Below are positions 54 to 8,321 of a stretch of 8,429 bases of DNA, piece after piece. The notes beneath the pieces were generated by a model. It did not search any database. It saw only the letters and a program-made list of their open reading frames with translations, and was not told where the DNA came from. Both the position numbers and the translations under genes were made by a program. Position 1 is the first letter of the stretch; each line of letters starts with the position of its first letter. This DNA comes from Promethearchaeota archaeon (GTDB taxonomy: Archaea; Asgardarchaeota; Odinarchaeia; Odinarchaeales; JBHLKK01): positions 1 to 8,429 of the forward strand of contig JBHLPL010000084.1 in the NCBI GenBank assembly GCA_048939465.1, given 5' to 3'.

Positions 54-77
54 AGTCAAAGGAATAGGTTTTTGACT
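54..77. terminator. Possible terminator hairpin at the PAC2 gene end
   Basis: AGTCAAA (54-60) and TTTGACT (71-77) form a 7-bp inverted repeat with a 10-nt loop, overlapping the PAC2 stop codon. T-runs occur on both strands nearby. The function is a guess. Confidence 0.2.
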
Positions 78-864
78 AGCTTATGTATGATTGACGGTCT
101 GAGCCTTCAGGGATTCTTTTATCAAGACGACCCCTAAGCTTCTCAAAGGCGCGCTCCATGGTCACAATCTGCTTGTCCAGTGCACTCACATCAATCCCGA
201 TATTGAACCATTTACCTAATATATCGACAATTGCCCTAGAGGCCTTTGGGTCCGTCGCCAAAATAGGCATTGTCTCCGCTAGTAAACAGACTCCGTCAAT
301 CCCATATTTGGCTTTTCCCCAAGCGGGGATTATACCATTTGCACCCATAATGACTCCTTCACCCATTACCTTGCATTGCTCAAGTTTCGTAAAGACATCA
401 AGAAGCTCGCGGGAAGTTGAGGAAACGAAAATGCTGGGCTCGGAAGAAACATTCTCTGTGACATACGCTCCTGTTGAAACAATAGTCTTCACACCGTGAG
501 ACTTGCAGAAGTTGCTAATGTAATCCGAAAATACAAATATACCGAGAGAAGTTGTTGGTTGAAAGTCGCCGCTTATGATGAATAAATCATTGACTCCTTT
601 TGGATTTTTCCAGAAGTAGATTGTTGATCGCGGTACGTGAAGCTTTCCATCTGCCCCCACAGCAACCTGGGCTGGGAAATCGTGGTAGAAAATCAAGGCG
701 ACCTTCTCAGCCTTTAGGCTTTCAGCGATGCTTAGAACAGCCCCTTTGCCGACCATTGCTATTCCAGGTAGCCCTACGATAGCCACAGGGTTATTTAACT
801 TAGCATGATCTAGTTTCTTCAGTATTTCTGTACGGGGCCCATTCATTCGGTGCACATTCTTCAC
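76..864 (-). CDS. PAC2-family proteasome assembly chaperone-like protein (COG2047/TIGR00162 type)
   Basis: N-terminal IVGLPGIAMVGK (family motif GLPGxGxVGK), YHDFPAQV, IISGDFQP, GANGII, GVCLLAET, DPKAS, and a C-terminal ..SYIS matching the YIG-type tail. The start is either GTG at 864 (overlapping AAGGAGTG) or ATG at 846. Confidence 0.9.
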   Translation of the reverse strand: MKNVHRMNGPRTEILKKLDHAKLNNPVAIVGLPGIAMVGKGAVLSIAESLKAEKVALIFYHDFPAQVAVGADGKLHVPRSTIYFWKNPKGVNDLFIISGDFQPTTSLGIFVFSDYISNFCKSHGVKTIVSTGAYVTENVSSEPSIFVSSTSRELLDVFTKLEQCKVMGEGVIMGANGIIPAWGKAKYGIDGVCLLAETMPILATDPKASRAIVDILGKWFNIGIDVSALDKQIVTMERAFEKLRGRLDKRIPEGSDRQSYIS

Positions 865-930: not shown

Positions 931-934
931 CTGT

Positions 935-938
935 TCAT
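935..938 (+). other. Inferred target tetranucleotide/TAM (TCAT; TTCAT with 934) of the IS200/IS605 insertion
   Basis: It lies 15 nt before GAGA (954-957), which sits at the foot of the left-end hairpin. This gives the +16..+19 guide geometry known for IS608. GAGA pairs with TCAT by the IS608 rule (guide 1,2,4 with cleavage 2,1,4). Joining 938 to 1317 restores an in-frame stop for the neighbouring gene. Confidence 0.65.
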
Positions 939-953
939 TTGAAACACCTCGAG

Positions 954-977
954 GAGACTCCATCCTGAAGGACGAAG
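954..977 (+). repeat. Left-end subterminal hairpin with guide tetranucleotide
   Basis: GAGA-CTCCATCC-TGAA-GGACGAAG, with 6 of 8 stem pairs intact. Positions 955-977 match the minus-strand hairpin at 3102-3080 at 18 of 23 positions without gaps. Confidence 0.65.
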
Positions 978-1022
978 AGGAACTCAGGTTAACATTAAAT
1001 GGGTCCGTCAAATGATTAGAAT

Positions 1023-1237
1023 CTCGAAGTAGTTTATGTCAGCCCTAACTACACCAGCAAAGAATGTAACAGATGTCACTGTAGAGACACTTCCCGACAT
1101 TAGGATGCCCAGAATGCAAGGTGTGCGGACACACCCCCAACTCGGACCTGAATGGTGCAAGAAACACAGCCCGACGCTACATGCGGATTACCAAGCTGGG
1201 CTTTTGTAAACAAGCCCCCCGATTTAGCGTGTTGTGA
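1023..1237 (+). pseudogene. tnpB: tnpB C-terminal remnant (zinc finger plus RuvC-III), truncated and frameshifted
   Basis: The frame from 1023 reads LEVVYVSPNYTSKECNRCHCRDTSRH* (TnpB VxPxYTSxxCxxC). After a frameshift at about 1101-1103, the frame from 1103 reads GCPECKVCGHTPNSDLNGARNTARRYM...SVL* (CxxCG..NxDxNAAxN, with the RuvC-III Asp at 1145). RuvC-I/II and the N-terminus are absent. Confidence 0.9.
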
Positions 1238-1336
1238 AGTCGAGACTATCCCTAACGGCATAAGATTGATACCGAGCACAGCTACAAACTTCATTTGTTA
1301 GGGCGGAGTAGCTTACGATTCAGTAGGATTCGTGAA
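1198..1336 (+). ncRNA. TnpB omegaRNA/reRNA-like scaffold (to 1316) plus flank-derived guide (about 1317-1336)
   Basis: Hairpin GGGCTT-TTGTAAAC-AAGCCC (1198-1217). Long stem TAGC/GCTA (1225-1228 with 1281-1284) plus GTGTT/AGCAC (1229-1233 with 1275-1279). Terminal hairpin then TAGCTTAC. This layout matches IS605-type tnpB 3' ends as I recall them. The 5' boundary and expression are unknown. Confidence 0.62.
1285..1316 (+). repeat. Right end of the element (degenerate hairpin plus terminal TTAC)
   Basis: ACTTCATTT-GTT-AGGGCGGAGT-AGC-TTAC. The stem now relies on several G-T pairs and has one mismatch. Positions 1286-1316 match 3102-3072 (minus) at 22 of 31 positions without gaps. Confidence 0.8.
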
Positions 1337-2236
1337 TCGAGACTCAATATCAGGCACTCGGATTTCAGCAAGCCCGATGACTTTCGAAACCATGGTCTCT
1401 TCTATGTCCAATTCTCTAATTAACTCGTCTTTTGTGATTTTCTCTTTAAACCGGACTATGTTACTAATCCTAGTAACATAGCTATACAAACGACTAATTC
1501 TATTCTTGAGAATTTCAAGTGCTCTTGGATCTTCCATATCTTTTACCTCCAAAATAATCTGAAGCAGGGAGGTCATCCAAGACACATTCTCTGGTTTCGA
1601 GATTCCATGTTTCTCGAACAGTCCAGTATCAACATAGTACACAATATATCTGTCTGGTCTTTTAACAGAGGGGAGCTCATCCAGTTTGACGCCTATCAAT
1701 TGGGATTCTTCTAAATTATCCTCTTCAGTTAGCTGCGCTATTGAAACACTCTCAGGAGAGATGCTGGACAAAGTGCAAAGCAAGATACGGACTTCAATCT
1801 TATTATCCCCAACAATGAAGATTTTATCACCATTGACCAAGTGATAGATGAGCTTTGCAAGATCACCAGCAGAAACGACCTTCAGAGTGTCCTCTATCGA
1901 TTTTAGCGTAGCGATATCAATCATTGAAAACATATTGCGTTTATTGATATTTAGAATGAATGCGAGCGATATTTGGGATAGACGCCAGTTGATTTCTGAC
2001 CTTGAATAGTCCCTACTACTAACAACTATTAATATGTAATCACTCATCTTTTTGAACCAGAAGGTGAAATCGCTTGTGGATATTTCTTCAACGCTCTGAC
2101 CGGTTAATATGTTGAGGAAGCTATTTTGAGCGCTGAAATATCCAGAGATTAGGGTGGGATCAACTGCGATGCTTCCGTACACTCTAGAAACAAGGGGGAT
2201 CCCATCTGTCTCCAAAATGTAAACATTGTGTATCAT
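1313..2236 (-). CDS. Longin-domain protein with a DENN/folliculin-like central domain (307 aa)
   Basis: MIHNVYILETDGIPLVSRVYGS..DPTLISGYFSAQNSF..EEISTSDFTFWFKK..YILIVVS fits the longin beta-beta-alpha-beta-beta-beta-alpha pattern. LIYHLVNGDKIFIVGD..VRILLCTLSSISP (1852-1754) resembles the DENN core helix-strand-helix. I place the start at ATG 2236 rather than 2392. The ORF is solid, the longin call is likely, and the DENN call is less certain. Confidence 0.75.
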   Translation of the reverse strand: MIHNVYILETDGIPLVSRVYGSIAVDPTLISGYFSAQNSFLNILTGQSVEEISTSDFTFWFKKMSDYILIVVSSRDYSRSEINWRLSQISLAFILNINKRNMFSMIDIATLKSIEDTLKVVSAGDLAKLIYHLVNGDKIFIVGDNKIEVRILLCTLSSISPESVSIAQLTEEDNLEESQLIGVKLDELPSVKRPDRYIVYYVDTGLFEKHGISKPENVSWMTSLLQIILEVKDMEDPRALEILKNRISRLYSYVTRISNIVRFKEKITKDELIRELDIEETMVSKVIGLAEIRVPDIESRFTNPTES

Positions 2237-2416
2237 CAAAAATCGCCATTTCCGAGGTTCATGAGGTGCTCTTGCTTCGTAATAATTAATGTTTCTTAAG
2301 AATATTAAGTTGTGGGTTTCATAGAGCTGTGAATAGTCTACAACTAGATTACTCTGAACTTCAAATAGAAGAAGGATAGAATACGACACCATAAGAACTG
2401 CTGGAAGTTATTAAGA

Positions 2417-2887
2417 TTGAAGGGTATTTACACTCTGTTGTTTGGAGTTTCAGAAACAATGCAAATCAGAGTCGGAAGCTTGGGAGTAGTCAGAGTTGAG
2501 AGTGGTGTTTATGCCTATACTGGCTCGGCGCTGGGCAGCGGAGTATCAAGTCTAGAGTGTAGAATAAGAAGACATCTCTCAGAGAAGAAAAGAACCTTTT
2601 GGCACATCGACTATCTCCTGATGCATGAAAAATCACGAATCATTGAGGTCATCTATGCTAAAACCGACCAGAATGTAGAATGTGAGGTTTTTAAAAAGCT
2701 TAGTAGGCGTTCCGGAGTTACTATTCCCGTTGAAGGATTTGGTGCTTCCGACTGCAAGAGTAAATGCGATAGTCATCTCTGCTTTATCAAGACAAGTGTG
2801 GGAGAAGCACTGCGGACGATTATGGATTGCTATCGAGAAGCAAAACAGGAACCAGAGAGATGGAAAGGCAAGGTACTAAAACGTTAA
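2417..2887 (+). CDS. DUF123 / GIY-YIG (Uri superfamily, COG1833) endonuclease
   Basis: GIYTL, GVYAYTGSA, RIRRH, WHIDYL, conserved Glu in ECEV, and GFGASDC..CDSHL. TTG start. Confidence 0.92.
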   Translation: MKGIYTLLFGVSETMQIRVGSLGVVRVESGVYAYTGSALGSGVSSLECRIRRHLSEKKRTFWHIDYLLMHEKSRIIEVIYAKTDQNVECEVFKKLSRRSGVTIPVEGFGASDCKSKCDSHLCFIKTSVGEALRTIMDCYREAKQEPERWKGKVLKR

Positions 2888-3071: not shown

Positions 3072-3104
3072 GTGAACTACTCCATCCTTTCGGATGAAGT
3101 CTTC
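3072..3104 (-). mobile_element. Isolated IS200/IS605 end, most likely a right end
   Basis: The minus strand reads GAAG-ACTTCATCC-GAAA-GGATGGAGT-AGT-TCAC: a 9-bp stem with one G-T pair, a GNRA loop and terminal TCAC. GAAG pairs with TCAC under the IS608 guide rule. No tnpB lies upstream of it. Confidence 0.7.
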
Positions 3105-3168
3105 TTGCAAAGAAGAAGACAAAAAGCCACCTTCCAATAGTAAGTCCTTAAGGCTATTGTTATAACTT

Positions 3169-3602: not shown

Positions 3603-6600
3603 CTATTCAAGTGCCTTTTCATAGATAGTCAACATTCTTTGAGTGACTCTATTCCAGGAACATAATCTTGTTACCAAATCCCTGGCGTTCCTTCCCATCT
3701 CTCTCCGTTTCTTATCATCATTGAGTAGAGAAGAAATAGCCTCGGATAAATTTCCCACAAGTTCAGAATCCAGACTTATTAGTCGTCCCACGTCTCGGTT
3801 TACAAATTCTTCGAAGGCTTCTATCCTCGAGGCAATCGTGGGCACACCGCATGCCATAGCCTCCAAAACAGATATGCTCATCAGTTCCATCTTCGTCATG
3901 GTAACAAACAGGTCGGCATGCCTTAGGAGCCTAATCTTCTCTTTCTCAGGAACATAGCCGGCAACAATAATATTATCCCCGCCATATCTACTTCTCAGGG
4001 AATTATACAAAGGACCTTTTCCAACAATTATCAGACGAACCTCTTCGCCAAAATCACACTTCAAATATGCCTTGATAAGCGGGCCTATGTTCTTTTCAGG
4101 AGACAGTCTTCCAACATATAATATTGTCTTTTCTTTCCTCTTTTTTAACGGCAGTGGTCTGAATACATTTACGTCCACCCCTGTTGGAACGTGATTCACA
4201 TTGGGAAAACCCACACTCTTAACAAAGCTCTCCTGCGATTTGGAAGTTACTATTATCTGATCTGATTGTCTTAGATAGCGCTTACCTATTTGATACATTA
4301 AGCGGGAGAGATACCCATAGGCTGTATTTTGAAGCGATAAGGCATAGTGGAGACTACACACAATAGGAATGTTCAGTTTTCTTGCAGCTTTAAAGGCATA
4401 AGCGTCCCAAGTCGTAGTAGGCCAGTGCAGATGAAGAAGCTGGAACGGTCGCTTCTTATGATTCCTCACTATTGTGCTTACTGCTTCTTTGCCTTTGGGG
4501 AGCACAAAATAAAACTCACCAACCTTAATTCGTGTGGGAAGAGGGATGTCCTTAGGAGAAATGGGATCTATACCTCTCTCCTCCGGGAAATAAAAGCCAA
4601 CTGTCTTGTTGTTATCTTTTTGTAAATGCTTGCGAAGGTGTGTAACATAGTGATATATGCCGTGAGTTGCCCCAGGGTATATTATGCCTATGTTAAGACC
4701 TTTTTTCTCGACATCTTCTTTCTTTCTAAGACCTACTGTGAGCTTCGTTTCTTTTCCAGGACGGTGTTCTATGCTTCCAATAAGATTGTGGGGCATCGCT
4801 ATTGATTTTCCAGTTGCTAAGATTTCTTCTGGATTCTTGCTCTCAATAAGCGAAAGTGCAGAAACTTGTCTGTAGATTCCTGCATGAATCCAGTTCGTAC
4901 GAAGGCTTACATCAATACCAAGAACGTCTTTCTTCTGAAGCAATCGGTCAAATGATTGTCCAGTAGTCTTATCGGGGTTACATATCTCCCAAACAAGTGT
5001 GTTGTTTGACCTGCCAATAATAACCGATCTATTCTCATTATCGACAAAAACTTCAGATCCGTTTGTGTTCAATCCGATATAAGGAACCAAAGCTTGCCGA
5101 CAGTCTGTATCTTCAGCCAGCGTTTCTATCTGAAGCGGATTAAACAGAAGCATTGGTGTTCCATTGATATTGAAGGCATATACTCTGAAGCTAAGTCTAT
5201 GAAAATCAGTTGCAAATTCACCCGAGAATCTTACACAGAATGGGCCTTCTTTGTTGCCCAGAACCAGCTTAGAGATCTTCTTCTTGACTCTTTCCCACTC
5301 GTGTACCTTGATGCTGTCTTCTGCTTCTTTTGGTCCTACACCGTAAAGGGCATCTTTTACACTACTTGAGGCCAGGAGAAGTCGGAAGTAGTATTGCCGT
5401 AGAGTTCTTTTTATCGTTCTTTTGAGTCTTGCATATCGAGAGTAACAGGGCCAAAATGAAACGCCGACTCCTCTTTCATTAAGAAAATTCTCGCCGAAAT
5501 TGTTCTTTAACGATTCAATTACGCCAGTTTCTTTGTTTATTCGGCAGAATTCTCTCCAGCTGTTATTTTCTCTTACTTCAATCAATAGATGATCTCGGCC
5601 AAGGCTGCACCTTATTCTACTCGGTATTCTCTTCCTTGTCCTAGCTTCGTCATCAAAATAGATGAAAAGCTCTGTTTGGGGGTGCTCAACAGGTATGAAA
5701 GCAACGATCTCATCATTCGGGCGCAGTTGAGTCTTACTTCTCCCTATGACCTGAGAGGGAATCAGCTTACCGTTATGAATTACTCGAATAGACTGAGGAT
5801 TTATTGCAGCGTTCAGATTATCGAGCAAGTGTTTGGCGGGTACGACAAGAGGAATCGTTGTCAAATTCGAAGACAAATCAAGCAAGACAAGAGGAACGCG
5901 GTACTTCCAGCGCTTGTTCCACCATTTCTTTGTCTCTTTGCCTCTTCCATGTAATCGAATGACATGTTCACCACTTGGAACCGAAATTCCTCTGGATTTC
6001 AAATCTTCCTTACTTAGCTTGGCCAAGACCTTTTTGCCAATGGAAACAAAGATTTCTTCAAAAGGGGAGTTCCTCACAAGGACCGTAGGGTGAGTTCCGC
6101 TATACCAAATCTTAATTCTCTGATTCTCAGGATTCCAAAGAGCAAGCAGATTATTAACTGATTCTCCCGTGATTCTCATATCTGAGCTATTCCTTCTGGT
6201 GACCAAGACAGTCAGGGTCTGACCTTCTTTAAGGTTGATACCAAAAATACTCCTATTGCTTCTTGAGACAATCTCTTCATTATCTATCTCAGCCTGTCGT
6301 CCGACTAGGTATGGCGAACGGATTTCGATTCCTGATACTTCAGCATCTGAATTGTTCTTTAGGACAATGTGCACGATTCCCTTTTCCAGGTAGACTTTCT
6401 GAAGAAAGCTGCATTTTTCCAGAAGTTCGATTTTGTTTCCTTTTACTTCGAAACTGATCTTCTTGTCCAGCGTCTCACATTCCATGGACGCTAATAGAAG
6501 TTCGCTTGCGGCGAAGGTCTGCTGGACTGGTATGTCTTCTAGCCCATGGATATAATTGAAGAAATAGGTTTCACTAAGTCCGCCATCTTTTTCTATGAAA

Positions 6601-8321
6601 TCAAGTGCCTTCCGATAGACATAATTGAAGATCTTACTCCAGAAGGGGTTTCCAGTTATCCTATATAATCTTGAATAGACTGACAGGACCATGACTGTCT
6701 CATAAGGTGCCACTCGAGGAGTTATGGAAAACGAGAGCGGATCAAAACCGCCACGGATTTTGAGCCTATCTGATTCCCACCAGAAGTGCCATGTTAGGAG
6801 GTATTTTGCCCAAGCCAATGAATAGTCTAGGAACTTCCTTTTATGAAGTGTTTCGTAGGCGTCCAGATTGGCATGAGCAGCGATGATTGCAGATATTCCT
6901 TCTTCCTCGTCAACTCCGGCGTCTCTCAGATAATTATACCCTAGGCAAGCAAAACCCCCTGGATTAAGCCAGTCTAACCCCTTCAGTGCTGCAGAACGAT
7001 ATATCTTCTCCCCGGTTATTCTATGGGCGAGGAGAAGAGCCCTTATGCATTCCGCGCTTCCACCCACAGACTCTTTGGATTCAAAATCTAATCTACGGGC
7101 AGGATATTCCCCAAAAACCTTTATTCCGAGTCGCCAAGCTCCATTGTCCTTCTGGGTTCTTAATATCCAATCAAGCGCGTCCAAACCCGCATTTAAGGCT
7201 CTTCTATCCTCTCGGTCTTCCCAGTCTCGCCGGATATGGTACAACTCTAAGAATTTCAGAGCAATAGTTGCCTGACCCCCCGGATATCCCGCATATCCGC
7301 TCTTAAGATATGAGTATCCTTCAGCCGTTACTCCATTGTAAGCAATACTATTGTGCCATATTCTACAGTTGTTCTTTATCTCCGATAGATTCCTGGAAAG
7401 CAATAGTTTTCTCAACCGGTTTGACCAATTGAGGAAAGACTTGCTGCCACTCTTCAAATAGTAGCGGTAGAAATTCACCATTCGTTCTGCTTCAAAGGAA
7501 GTGAGACTAAAGAGCAAATCATCAAACAAGAAAGATGGATGATCCTTATAAGGAAGCTGCAAGAAAGTGCCTAGCCTATCATCCCAGGCTCTCCAAAAAG
7601 CGTTCTGGGTTTTGGCAGCAACTCTTCTACAAGTCTCCAAATCCGTTGACAGTTGTTCCAGCGGCTTTACTTGGAAGAATCCATCTACAGCTTCAGTCCA
7701 GATACCGTACCCATAAATGATAGACGCTGTTGTCTTTATCTCCTCTCCCGCATCCAAAACTATTGGAAGAGGCTCAGGTCTTGGATGACGGCCAAGCCAA
7801 ATGTTCCTTTTTAACATCAATTCTTGGGAGCAATAAGCCAAGGCCGCAACACTATCACCTGTTTCAGACGATCTCCTGCCCTCAAACCTGATGGAGTGAA
7901 CAAGATTCTGATCAAGACTCGACTTTTCAATAGGAGAGAACACAACTCCGAAGTACGAGTTGGAGGAATTGAACATAATAAGAGGCATCTTGCAGTACAT
8001 CGCACTTCGATAGCAATTCCCGTCAATGGTTGCTGGTGGGATTTTGGACTTGTAGTAGGTTGAGAAAGGATAAGGAAAATCGAATCTTCGATTAACTATA
8101 TCAAAATCGTCGGACCGAACGTAGCGCATGCCACCGACAAAGGCGTAATTCACTGGAAGCGAGCAGCACAATATGGGGTTCTCGAAGAGAACTAATTCAA
8201 CTCTATCCGGAGAAGTGCATGTTGTTATTATTTGAGGAAAAGACTTCGAGAAATCCCAAATAGTGTCAATTTTCCACCTTTCAGATTCGCCTGAAAGTCT
8301 TATTTCGTTCTTTCCAACCAC
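3603..8321 (-). CDS. 1572-aa multidomain carbohydrate-active protein: six-hairpin glycosidase-like domain, beta-rich domains and C-terminal GT4 glycosyltransferase
   Basis: Uninterrupted 4.7-kb ORF with a GTG start bounded by an in-frame TGA at 8339-8337. See the separate domain entries. No signal peptide or transmembrane segment is visible. Confidence 0.9.
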   Translation of the reverse strand: MVGKNEIRLSGESERWKIDTIWDFSKSFPQIITTCTSPDRVELVLFENPILCCSLPVNYAFVGGMRYVRSDDFDIVNRRFDFPYPFSTYYKSKIPPATIDGNCYRSAMYCKMPLIMFNSSNSYFGVVFSPIEKSSLDQNLVHSIRFEGRRSSETGDSVAALAYCSQELMLKRNIWLGRHPRPEPLPIVLDAGEEIKTTASIIYGYGIWTEAVDGFFQVKPLEQLSTDLETCRRVAAKTQNAFWRAWDDRLGTFLQLPYKDHPSFLFDDLLFSLTSFEAERMVNFYRYYLKSGSKSFLNWSNRLRKLLLSRNLSEIKNNCRIWHNSIAYNGVTAEGYSYLKSGYAGYPGGQATIALKFLELYHIRRDWEDREDRRALNAGLDALDWILRTQKDNGAWRLGIKVFGEYPARRLDFESKESVGGSAECIRALLLAHRITGEKIYRSAALKGLDWLNPGGFACLGYNYLRDAGVDEEEGISAIIAAHANLDAYETLHKRKFLDYSLAWAKYLLTWHFWWESDRLKIRGGFDPLSFSITPRVAPYETVMVLSVYSRLYRITGNPFWSKIFNYVYRKALDFIEKDGGLSETYFFNYIHGLEDIPVQQTFAASELLLASMECETLDKKISFEVKGNKIELLEKCSFLQKVYLEKGIVHIVLKNNSDAEVSGIEIRSPYLVGRQAEIDNEEIVSRSNRSIFGINLKEGQTLTVLVTRRNSSDMRITGESVNNLLALWNPENQRIKIWYSGTHPTVLVRNSPFEEIFVSIGKKVLAKLSKEDLKSRGISVPSGEHVIRLHGRGKETKKWWNKRWKYRVPLVLLDLSSNLTTIPLVVPAKHLLDNLNAAINPQSIRVIHNGKLIPSQVIGRSKTQLRPNDEIVAFIPVEHPQTELFIYFDDEARTRKRIPSRIRCSLGRDHLLIEVRENNSWREFCRINKETGVIESLKNNFGENFLNERGVGVSFWPCYSRYARLKRTIKRTLRQYYFRLLLASSSVKDALYGVGPKEAEDSIKVHEWERVKKKISKLVLGNKEGPFCVRFSGEFATDFHRLSFRVYAFNINGTPMLLFNPLQIETLAEDTDCRQALVPYIGLNTNGSEVFVDNENRSVIIGRSNNTLVWEICNPDKTTGQSFDRLLQKKDVLGIDVSLRTNWIHAGIYRQVSALSLIESKNPEEILATGKSIAMPHNLIGSIEHRPGKETKLTVGLRKKEDVEKKGLNIGIIYPGATHGIYHYVTHLRKHLQKDNNKTVGFYFPEERGIDPISPKDIPLPTRIKVGEFYFVLPKGKEAVSTIVRNHKKRPFQLLHLHWPTTTWDAYAFKAARKLNIPIVCSLHYALSLQNTAYGYLSRLMYQIGKRYLRQSDQIIVTSKSQESFVKSVGFPNVNHVPTGVDVNVFRPLPLKKRKEKTILYVGRLSPEKNIGPLIKAYLKCDFGEEVRLIIVGKGPLYNSLRSRYGGDNIIVAGYVPEKEKIRLLRHADLFVTMTKMELMSISVLEAMACGVPTIASRIEAFEEFVNRDVGRLISLDSELVGNLSEAISSLLNDDKKRREMGRNARDLVTRLCSWNRVTQRMLTIYEKALE
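3606..4697 (-). other. GT4 (GT-B fold) glycosyltransferase domain, aa about 1209-1572
   Basis: LLHLHW, IPIVCSLH, VPTGVD..FRP, ILYVGRLSPEKN, LIIVGKGP, ADLFV, EX7E motif ELMSISVLEAMACGVPTIAS, and C-terminal MGRNAR..SW..V..IYE. Confidence 0.95.
4767..5609 (-). other. Beta-supersandwich-like region, aa about 905-1185
   Basis: CRINKETGVIESLKNNFGENFL resembles the start of GH38 C-terminal/galactose-mutarotase-like supersandwich domains and is followed by alternating beta-strand patterns. Boundaries are approximate. Confidence 0.4.
5652..5924 (-). other. DUF2341-like beta module, aa about 800-890
   Basis: It opens with WWNKRWKYRVPL (the WWxxxWxYRxxI motif that precedes DUF2341-type modules), then INPQSIRVI..IPSQV and LFIYFD. 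Confidence 0.45.
6477..7634 (-). other. (alpha/alpha)6 six-hairpin glycosidase-like barrel, aa about 230-615
   Basis: Repeated helical hairpins typical of this fold: ALDWILRTQKDNGAW, ALLLAHRITGEKIYRSAALKGLDWL, AYETLHKRKFLDYSLAWAKYLL, LYRITGNPFW. It also has an acidic cluster RDAGVDEEEG. The specific GH family cannot be assigned. Confidence 0.7.

Follow-up and report, generated by a model that had tools for sequence, protein, structure and literature searches.

Palindrome-associated transposable elements (PATEs) were described in Haloquadratum walsbyi as derivatives of IS605-/IS1341-type transposons (Dyall-Smith et al. 2011, PMC3119063). Deletion of the core between repeats is one route by which they originate, and the remains can be substantial or minimal: the PATE HqIRS71 retains a disrupted C-terminal coding segment, while other versions consist of 52 bp of terminal sequence only (PMC3119063). 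PATEs often encode omegaRNAs, which would need the TnpB of other elements in trans (Meers et al. 2023, 10.1101/2023.03.14.532601). The kind of element reported here is already described, and the use of PATE omegaRNAs in trans is already published as a proposal.

We analyzed a stretch of 8429 bp (hereafter the window), which is the entire contig C5 of a metagenome-assembled genome (MAG) of an Asgard (Odin-type) archaeon. This MAG (G000) has 1.96 Mb in 152 contigs; relatives from the same order have small genomes, of 1.3-1.4 Mb. A first-pass annotation had read in this DNA an orphan omegaRNA whose guide is antisense to the end of a longin-domain gene, and which would either home in trans with a TnpB supplied by another element or regulate the gene as a cis-antisense RNA. 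Our analysis suggests that the locus is likely a decayed and neutrally drifting PATE-type derivative of a tnpB-only transposon of the IS200/IS605 family (IS1341-type). The features of the window are listed in Table 1.

Table 1. Position and strand of the genes and element features in the window.
Feature	Position	Strand	Remarks
PAC2-family gene	76-864	-	Left flank of the element; Pfam PF09754, E 2e-30
TAM TTCAT	934-938	+	Left flank; the ancestral longin TGA stop was within its reverse complement, ATGAA
Left end (LE)	939-1017	+	Alignment with the intact element's LE extends to 5 nt short of the tnpB ATG
TATA-like ATTAAAT	994-1000	+	Within LE; conserved in the LE of the family
Deletion junction	1016-1024	+	Remnant of a single TTAAAGG repeat
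tnpB 3' remnant	1020-1301	+	About 92 C-terminal codons with zinc-finger and third RuvC motifs; frameshifts and a stop
OmegaRNA-type scaffold, degraded	1158-1316	+	Overlap with the end of the tnpB remnant; reaches the right end
Terminal hairpin (subterminal palindrome of the right end)	1288-1309	+	1288-1296 with 1301-1309; 8/9 pairs left, 4 of them G-T, one A-C mismatch
TAA stop codon of the longin gene	1313-1315	-	Contributed by the final four transposon bases (..TTAC)
Longin-domain (folliculin/C9orf72-like) gene	1313-2392	-	Weak Pfam match to Fuz_longin_1, E 0.0033
Predicted guide template (right flank)	1317-1336	+	Antisense to longin codons ..FTNPTES
DUF123 gene	2417-2887	+	
1572-aa protein with GT4 glycosyltransferase C-terminus	3603-8321	-	

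Ends, class and origin of the element

The right end (RE) had been placed at 1316 in the first-pass annotation, with the following 20 positions as the source of the guide, and our alignments agree. The window copy and 21 related ones all finish with ...GGAGTAG(T/C)TTAC at this position, where similarity among the 22 copies ceases, so that 1317-1336 is the flank from which a guide would derive. We also considered a right end at 1312, with the TTAC belonging to the host, and ruled it out: ..TT(T/C)AC is present in all 22 copies, and the T at position -1 of the TAM is invariant. The TTCAT that had been taken as the TAM precedes the left end in 12 of the 23 family copies, and 22 of the 23 have a T at -1. 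The description of the RNA as an orphan was mistaken. Both the LE and the TAM are retained, and 939-1316 is, as judged from these alignments, a complete two-ended non-autonomous element of 378 nt.

Homology of the LE to that of the intact element was confirmed by global alignment, blastn-short having returned only chance 7-9-mers; the window LE also aligns with the LE of about 16 mini-elements (see below). The ATTAAAT box it contains is a putative promoter. The possibility that 865-1027 is merely the promoter of the PAC2 gene was ruled out, since only 865-938 aligns with the element-free relatives. Mini-elements, terminal-only forms and four intact-type copies from two congeners share a common start, TTCAT/CT(A/G)AACCACC.. 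(slashes mark element boundaries or insertion points), and a common end, ..GGAGTAGTTTAC/.

Assignment to the IS200/IS605 family is based on several properties. Both ends are homologous to those of tnpB-carrying elements, namely the full-length relative split between contigs C55 and C70 of the same genome and the four intact-type copies of congeners. Insertion occurred 3' of a short motif, with neither target-site duplication nor terminal inverted repeats: in the empty sites of two relatives the left flank joins the right flank directly, without duplication, and the two ends of the element are not inverted repeats of each other. The element is too short and broken to encode a transposase or TnpB (its longest sense frame has 58 codons), and a Y1 TnpA is present in trans in the genome (PF01797, G000:C105:1180-1545, E 7.5e-37). 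Subterminal palindromes are found at both ends in the family and in the intact copy. In the window, the count of 8 pairs of 9 for the RE hairpin depends on including G-T pairs, and folding of the LE as single-stranded DNA does not yield its hairpin.

The genome has one closely related full-length element, at the ends of contigs C55 (..6043) and C70 (1..), whose overlap of exactly 77 nt falls inside tnpB; the repeat is the probable cause of the break in the assembly. Once joined, the element measures 1246 nt, is preceded by TTCAT (TTCAT/CTGAGACACC..) and ends with ..GGGGTAGTTTAC. Its TnpB, a join of two MAG contig ends whose integrity is assumed, has 381 aa, the three RuvC motifs (GVDLG, IEDL and SDLNGA) and a CxxC..CxxC finger, and matches PF01385 and PF07282. 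The first-pass annotation had made its reading depend on a cognate TnpB somewhere in the genome, and this intact protein is one.

The tnpB of the window had been called dead, rightly so. Only C-terminal pieces are left, in three stop-to-stop frames (VVYVSPNYTSKECNRCH; CPECKVCGH..NSDLNGARN; and ..PDLACCEVETIPNGIRLIPSTATNFIC, followed by a stop), and they give a weak PF07282 match with an internal TAG. The region 1020-1316 has 81% DNA identity with the 3' end of the C55/C70 element. More broadly, the window copy has 80-81.5% identity with every one of five intact-type copies, which are 85-90% identical among themselves. One of three intact-type copies of a congener, L065 (G002:C110:5132-8420), also has a broken tnpB, with a longest frame of 210 aa; its omegaRNA region shows the same degree of conservation as those of the intact copies. 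In the intact element, TTAAAGG occurs at element positions 79 and 946. An element of 379 nt would be expected after loss of the intervening 867 nt, and the one in the window has 378 nt. From this sequence comparison, the window element is a repeat-mediated core deletion of the 1246-nt element, independent of the mini-elements. We found no second copy with this deletion junction in the genome.

The presence of both ends and of the TAM raises the question of whether the 378-nt element is still mobile as a non-autonomous transposon, with the only TnpA of the genome acting on it. This enzyme exists, the element that encodes it ends in a similar ..GGAGTAGTTCAC, and the related mini-elements, of about 300 nt, have reached a copy number of at least 16. 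However, the window junction occurs in one copy only, this copy diverges by 18.5-20% from all its relatives, and the palindromes of its LE and RE form poor hairpins as single-stranded DNA. The window LE (939-992) yields -3.3 kcal/mol (z +0.67), which is no better than shuffled sequences, whereas the intact LE forms a hairpin of -6.5 kcal/mol; at the other end, the terminal hairpin is not the preferred fold as DNA. We thus regard continued mobility as very unlikely. Given the poor end hairpins and the single copy with this junction, the element is probably immobile. If excision is indeed impossible, the donor joint would never arise and the guide would not be under selection.

The genome contains other short elements of this kind. 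At least 16 gene-less copies of 291-304 nt consist of LE, a TATA-like box, an omegaRNA-type scaffold of about 210 nt and RE, next to a TTCAT TAM (e.g., C38:1583-1878, C66:3252-3549, C118:3635-~3935 and C10:14655-14958). There are also terminal-only forms, four of 47 nt and two of 100 nt. A second mobile-element relic in the window itself is a terminal-only micro-element of 47 nt (3072-3118, minus strand; TTTGT/CTTCTTCTTTGCAAGAAGACTTCATCCGAAAGGATGGAGTAGTTCAC/), in which the LE hairpin is fused straight to the RE end. It is part of a different family of mini-elements, of about 220-230 nt and with at least 8 copies, ending in ..GGAGTAGTTCAC; the right end of this family resembles that of the tnpA+tnpB element of contig C105. 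The latter (G000:C105:1029-2845) carries the only Y1 tnpA of the genome, adjoining a tnpB of 433 aa. A right-end-like motif, GGTGGAGTAGTTTAC, is found just upstream (1029-1043), and 2831-2845 is the right end of the element itself, GGTGGAGTAGTTCAC; this arrangement may be a tandem or nested insertion.

Insertion at the stop codon of the longin gene

Longin-domain proteins are abundant in the phylum. For the one encoded next to the element, the nearest named clusters in the protein atlas are Folliculin and C9orf72-like (scores of 0.77-0.82, to be taken as leads only), and a sequence search against the PDB returned nothing meaningful (E 0.11). Orthologues in the congeners are 73% identical and have the same C-terminus. 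The true start of the open reading frame is probably later than that of the longest frame, as suggested by the atlas record, which begins at residue 53 (M), and by the orthologues, which align only from residue 23 on.

In the two same-genus genomes that lack the element (G001 and G002), synteny is otherwise kept: the PAC2 gene adjoins the longin gene, and the longin protein ends with ..ES followed by TGA. The empty sites read ..GAATTCAC/GACTCAATAGG.. and ..GAAGTCAC/GATTCAGCATT.., with TTCAC/GA.. and GTCAC/GA.. at the positions of the TAM. In the window, the gene strand reads ..GAA TCG TAA, where the final bases of the transposon account for the TAA and for the G of the Ser codon. The reverse complement of the TAM (ATGAA) holds a TGA and that of the right end (GTAA) holds a TAA. 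Hence, the insertion replaced the stop codon and left the protein unchanged.

The flank had been described as the exact antisense of the last codons of the gene. This is correct and follows directly from the overlap with the minus-strand frame at 1313-2392. To assess how common this arrangement is, we can compare it with the other right ends: for 10 of the 64 right-end motifs, the stop codon within the right end is precisely that of an open frame of at least 80 codons on the other strand, versus 2 of 128 control frames. The right ends that supply a stop have TTAC or TCAC as their last four bases, i.e., GTAA or GTGA on the other strand, and include those of C66, C38, C69, C96 and the intact C55 copy. 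A guide thus comes to be antisense to the last codons of a gene through insertion at a TGA stop that lies within the TAM, a matter of target preference combined with survivorship. The antisense relation is a by-product of insertion and not a locus-specific design.

These counts bear on the proposal that the element acts as a cis-antisense regulator, with transcription that passes 1316, reaches the 3' end of the longin gene and modulates its mRNA. The convergent orientation and the possible promoter in LE are consistent with it; no strong T-run terminator is visible after 1336 upon inspection of the sequence, and in archaea, the 3' ends of IS1341-type tnpB genes are reported to give rise to sotRNAs (PMC4615843). 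But the same geometry recurs at about 10 of the 64 right ends, beside unrelated genes, which argues for insertion preference and survivorship. The sequence lacks the conservation that such a role would leave, and both congeners, with longin genes that do not otherwise differ, lack the insertion. This makes a regulatory role in cis barely credible.

By its position, 1317-1336 would be the template of a guide. It has a single exact match in the genome, and a second TAM-adjacent site is absent. The predicted target is the element-free allele, TTCAT followed by GATTCAG.. (TTCAT followed by GATTCAGTAGGATTCG; TTCAT followed by GATTCAGTAGGATTCGTGAA), so the anatomy proposed in the first-pass annotation, in which the guide matches the empty allele next to the TAM, is right. 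The empty alleles of the relatives have several mismatches to the guide, and TTCAC and GTCAC in place of TTCAT. In public metagenomes, a search for empty or occupied alleles with the 29-mer starting at 1317 resulted in 0 matches.

The omegaRNA-type module and its decay

A covariance-model search had been suggested as a check of the RNA. Curated models were of no help: at E ≤ 1, the scan of the whole window with Rfam 15 revealed no omegaRNA or IS605-related family, the only match being a chance one to HOTTIP_4 (a lncRNA) at 2328-2500. We therefore report the results of R1, a home-made covariance model built from 22 copies, which matches the window at 1158-1316 (120.6 bits, E 2.4e-29). This score is the lowest among the 18 training copies from the same genome. 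The conserved structured module starts near 1158, and not at 1198 as initially thought. R1 has 27 matches in the genome, versus one cognate intact tnpB.

At the level of the family, the omegaRNA-type module is real, as judged by its location and covariation. The intact tnpB stops 14-18 nt before RE, and the equivalent of this stop in the window is at 1299-1301, with RE at 1316. The structure predicted by RNAalifold from 18 copies has a closing helix next to the right end, an AGCCCG/CGGGCT stem, a GGGGCG/CGCCCC hairpin, an internal domain and the terminal hairpin. In this structure 91% of the cells are paired, compared with 35-51% when the partners are slid, and 14 of the 36 pairs changed on both sides, compared with 7.3±1.9 in shuffles (none of 500 reached 14). 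The covariation is a property of the family only; the window copy taken alone has 8 of 45 pairs broken and zero compensated.

The first-pass annotation held that the stems of the scaffold remain pairable. We counted pairs in the structure predicted from the five intact-type copies, which has 45 pairs, all paired in the consensus. The window copy has 13 specific changes at paired positions, of which 8 break the pair and 5 keep it, with no compensatory double changes; random transitions would be expected to break 5.3±1.8 pairs, versus the 8 observed. The initial claim holds for the terminal hairpin, where 5 of the 6 changes keep the pair (3 as G-T), and fails elsewhere, where all 7 changes at paired positions break it. 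In the conserved AGCCCG/CGGGCT stem, two adjacent pairs are broken (1171/1194 and 1172/1193), a combination unique to the window among the aligned copies; the GGGCTT/AAGCCC hairpin remains intact.

The pairing left in the terminal hairpin is not in itself a sign of constraint. Most changes in the window are transitions, and transitions alone turn G-C or A-T pairs into G-T about half of the time. In the terminal hairpin, about two thirds of random transitions would keep pairing (reckoned from its pairs), so its G-T pairs are expected by chance under transition-biased decay. Moreover, LE and RE of these families bear a similar hairpin, and the terminal hairpin doubles as the DNA palindrome that TnpA needs; its conservation is therefore not evidence specific to RNA.

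Substitution rates lead in the same direction. We considered the sites with the same base in all five intact-type copies: in the omegaRNA region, the window departs from them at 20 of 125 (16%), and in the coding remnant at 8 of 94 (8.5%), a difference that concerns one lineage and few sites (Fisher p 0.11). Hence, the omegaRNA part evolved no slower than the dead tnpB remnant; constraint is not seen, and its lack is unproven. The 159-nt scaffold of the window has a minimum free energy (MFE) of -38.9 kcal/mol (z -0.86) and a fold that is not that of the family. For comparison, the scaffold of the intact copy has -50.7 (z -1.84), and that of the mini-element in C118 has -53.1 (z -3.55) with the family fold. 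The scaffold is still recognizable and is the most degraded of its family. Neutral-looking substitutions in the stems, without compensatory double changes, are what the first-pass annotation had said would speak against its reading, and this is essentially what we observe.

These data weigh on the main functional proposal, in which a working omegaRNA, transcribed from the LE promoter and loaded in trans on the sister TnpB, cuts empty alleles and so retains or spreads the insertion among chromosome copies. Some observations are consistent with it. LE has a TATA-like box, the scaffold is recognizable, and most of the terminal hairpin, adjacent to the guide, can still pair as RNA; the genome also encodes a cognate TnpB whose catalytic triad is intact. 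The guide has no TAM-adjacent off-target, the right end reads CTTAC, which differs from the TAM and would spare the occupied allele, and the concept is published for PATEs (10.1101/2023.03.14.532601). The terminal hairpin with 8 of its 9 pairs, the GGGCTT/AAGCCC hairpin and the 120 bits of the R1 match make residual binding to TnpB possible. On the other hand, no constraint is seen in a scaffold whose rate of change equals or exceeds that of the dead coding part, the broken pairs are uncompensated and include the two adjacent mismatches of the AGCCCG/CGGGCT stem, and the family fold is lost in the MFE structure. The ends seem too degraded for excision by TnpA, which would leave no donor joint to re-cut, and the empty alleles of the two relatives mismatch the guide next to TTCAC or GTCAC. 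Overall, we find a functional omegaRNA at this locus unlikely, and no result of the analysis backs the functional claim, be it homing in trans or cis-antisense regulation. If the mechanism were true, it would be an application of the published proposal.

A broader version of the idea is that the decayed scaffold and the roughly 20 sister mini-elements form a dispersed guide-RNA repertoire of the single TnpB, with guides that protect their own insertions through cleavage of the empty allele. We think this quite improbable. Since many of the guides are antisense to the 3' ends of genes, they would, if this were true, also be positioned to act on convergent mRNAs.

History of the locus and comparison with known systems

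The reading we prefer, that of a decayed PATE-type derivative, suggests the following order of events. A full-length element would have inserted 3' of a TTCAT that overlapped the TGA of the convergent longin gene. The ..TTAC of its right end, GTAA on the gene strand, would have rebuilt the Ser codon and given a new TAA, such that the insertion was tolerated. Later, recombination between the 7-nt TTAAAGG direct repeats would have removed the core of 867 nt. This would have left LE with its TATA-like box, about 92 broken codons of tnpB, the overlapping omegaRNA scaffold and the right end. The entire remnant, RNA scaffold included, would then have drifted as neutral DNA. If it were transcribed and bound by TnpB, the guide (from 1317 to about 1336) would direct the cutting of the element-free allele, as in the homing/retention mechanism already published; most likely, the window copy no longer does so.

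What appeared to be an orphan guide RNA aimed at a eukaryote-like trafficking gene is then likely the worn end of a PATE-type derivative of IS200/IS605. The locus shows a right end that rebuilds the stop codon and leaves the host protein unchanged, together with a core deletion between 7-nt repeats. In the annotation of Asgard MAGs, remnants of this type should be labelled as relics of mobile elements rather than regulatory RNAs.

Among the systems close to the window element are the mini-elements of about 300 nt in the same genome, which share with it the start of LE, the TAM, the right end and the architecture of the scaffold. They make up a distinct, compact and well-folding subfamily, in which 0-8 of the 36 consensus pairs are unpaired (8 in C106). 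In contrast, the window copy is a recent-type deletion of the full-length lineage (80% identical), with codons of tnpB that are still recognizable. As in the omegaRNAs of Meers et al., the scaffold of the window overlaps tnpB at its 3' end and terminates at the right end, the guide would come from the flank, and the predicted target, TAM plus flank, is the donor joint or empty site. It differs from them in that its family is known from sequence alone, lacks an Rfam match, and that the scaffold is decayed rather than conserved.

The resemblance to the PATEs of Haloquadratum is in the general plan. Like them, the window element is gene-less, has IS605-type ends with neither inverted repeats nor target duplication, and lies beside a short target oligonucleotide; the 47-nt terminal-only forms of this Asgard genome also parallel the 52-bp ones. 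The differences are in the repeats that flank the deletion, which have 7 nt here and 19-22 nt in Haloquadratum, and in the copies, since the window one is single and decayed whereas those of Haloquadratum form an expanded and homogeneous family. The host also differs, being an Asgard archaeon of the Odin type and not a haloarchaeon. The locus adds an Asgard example to a class known from haloarchaea and bacteria.
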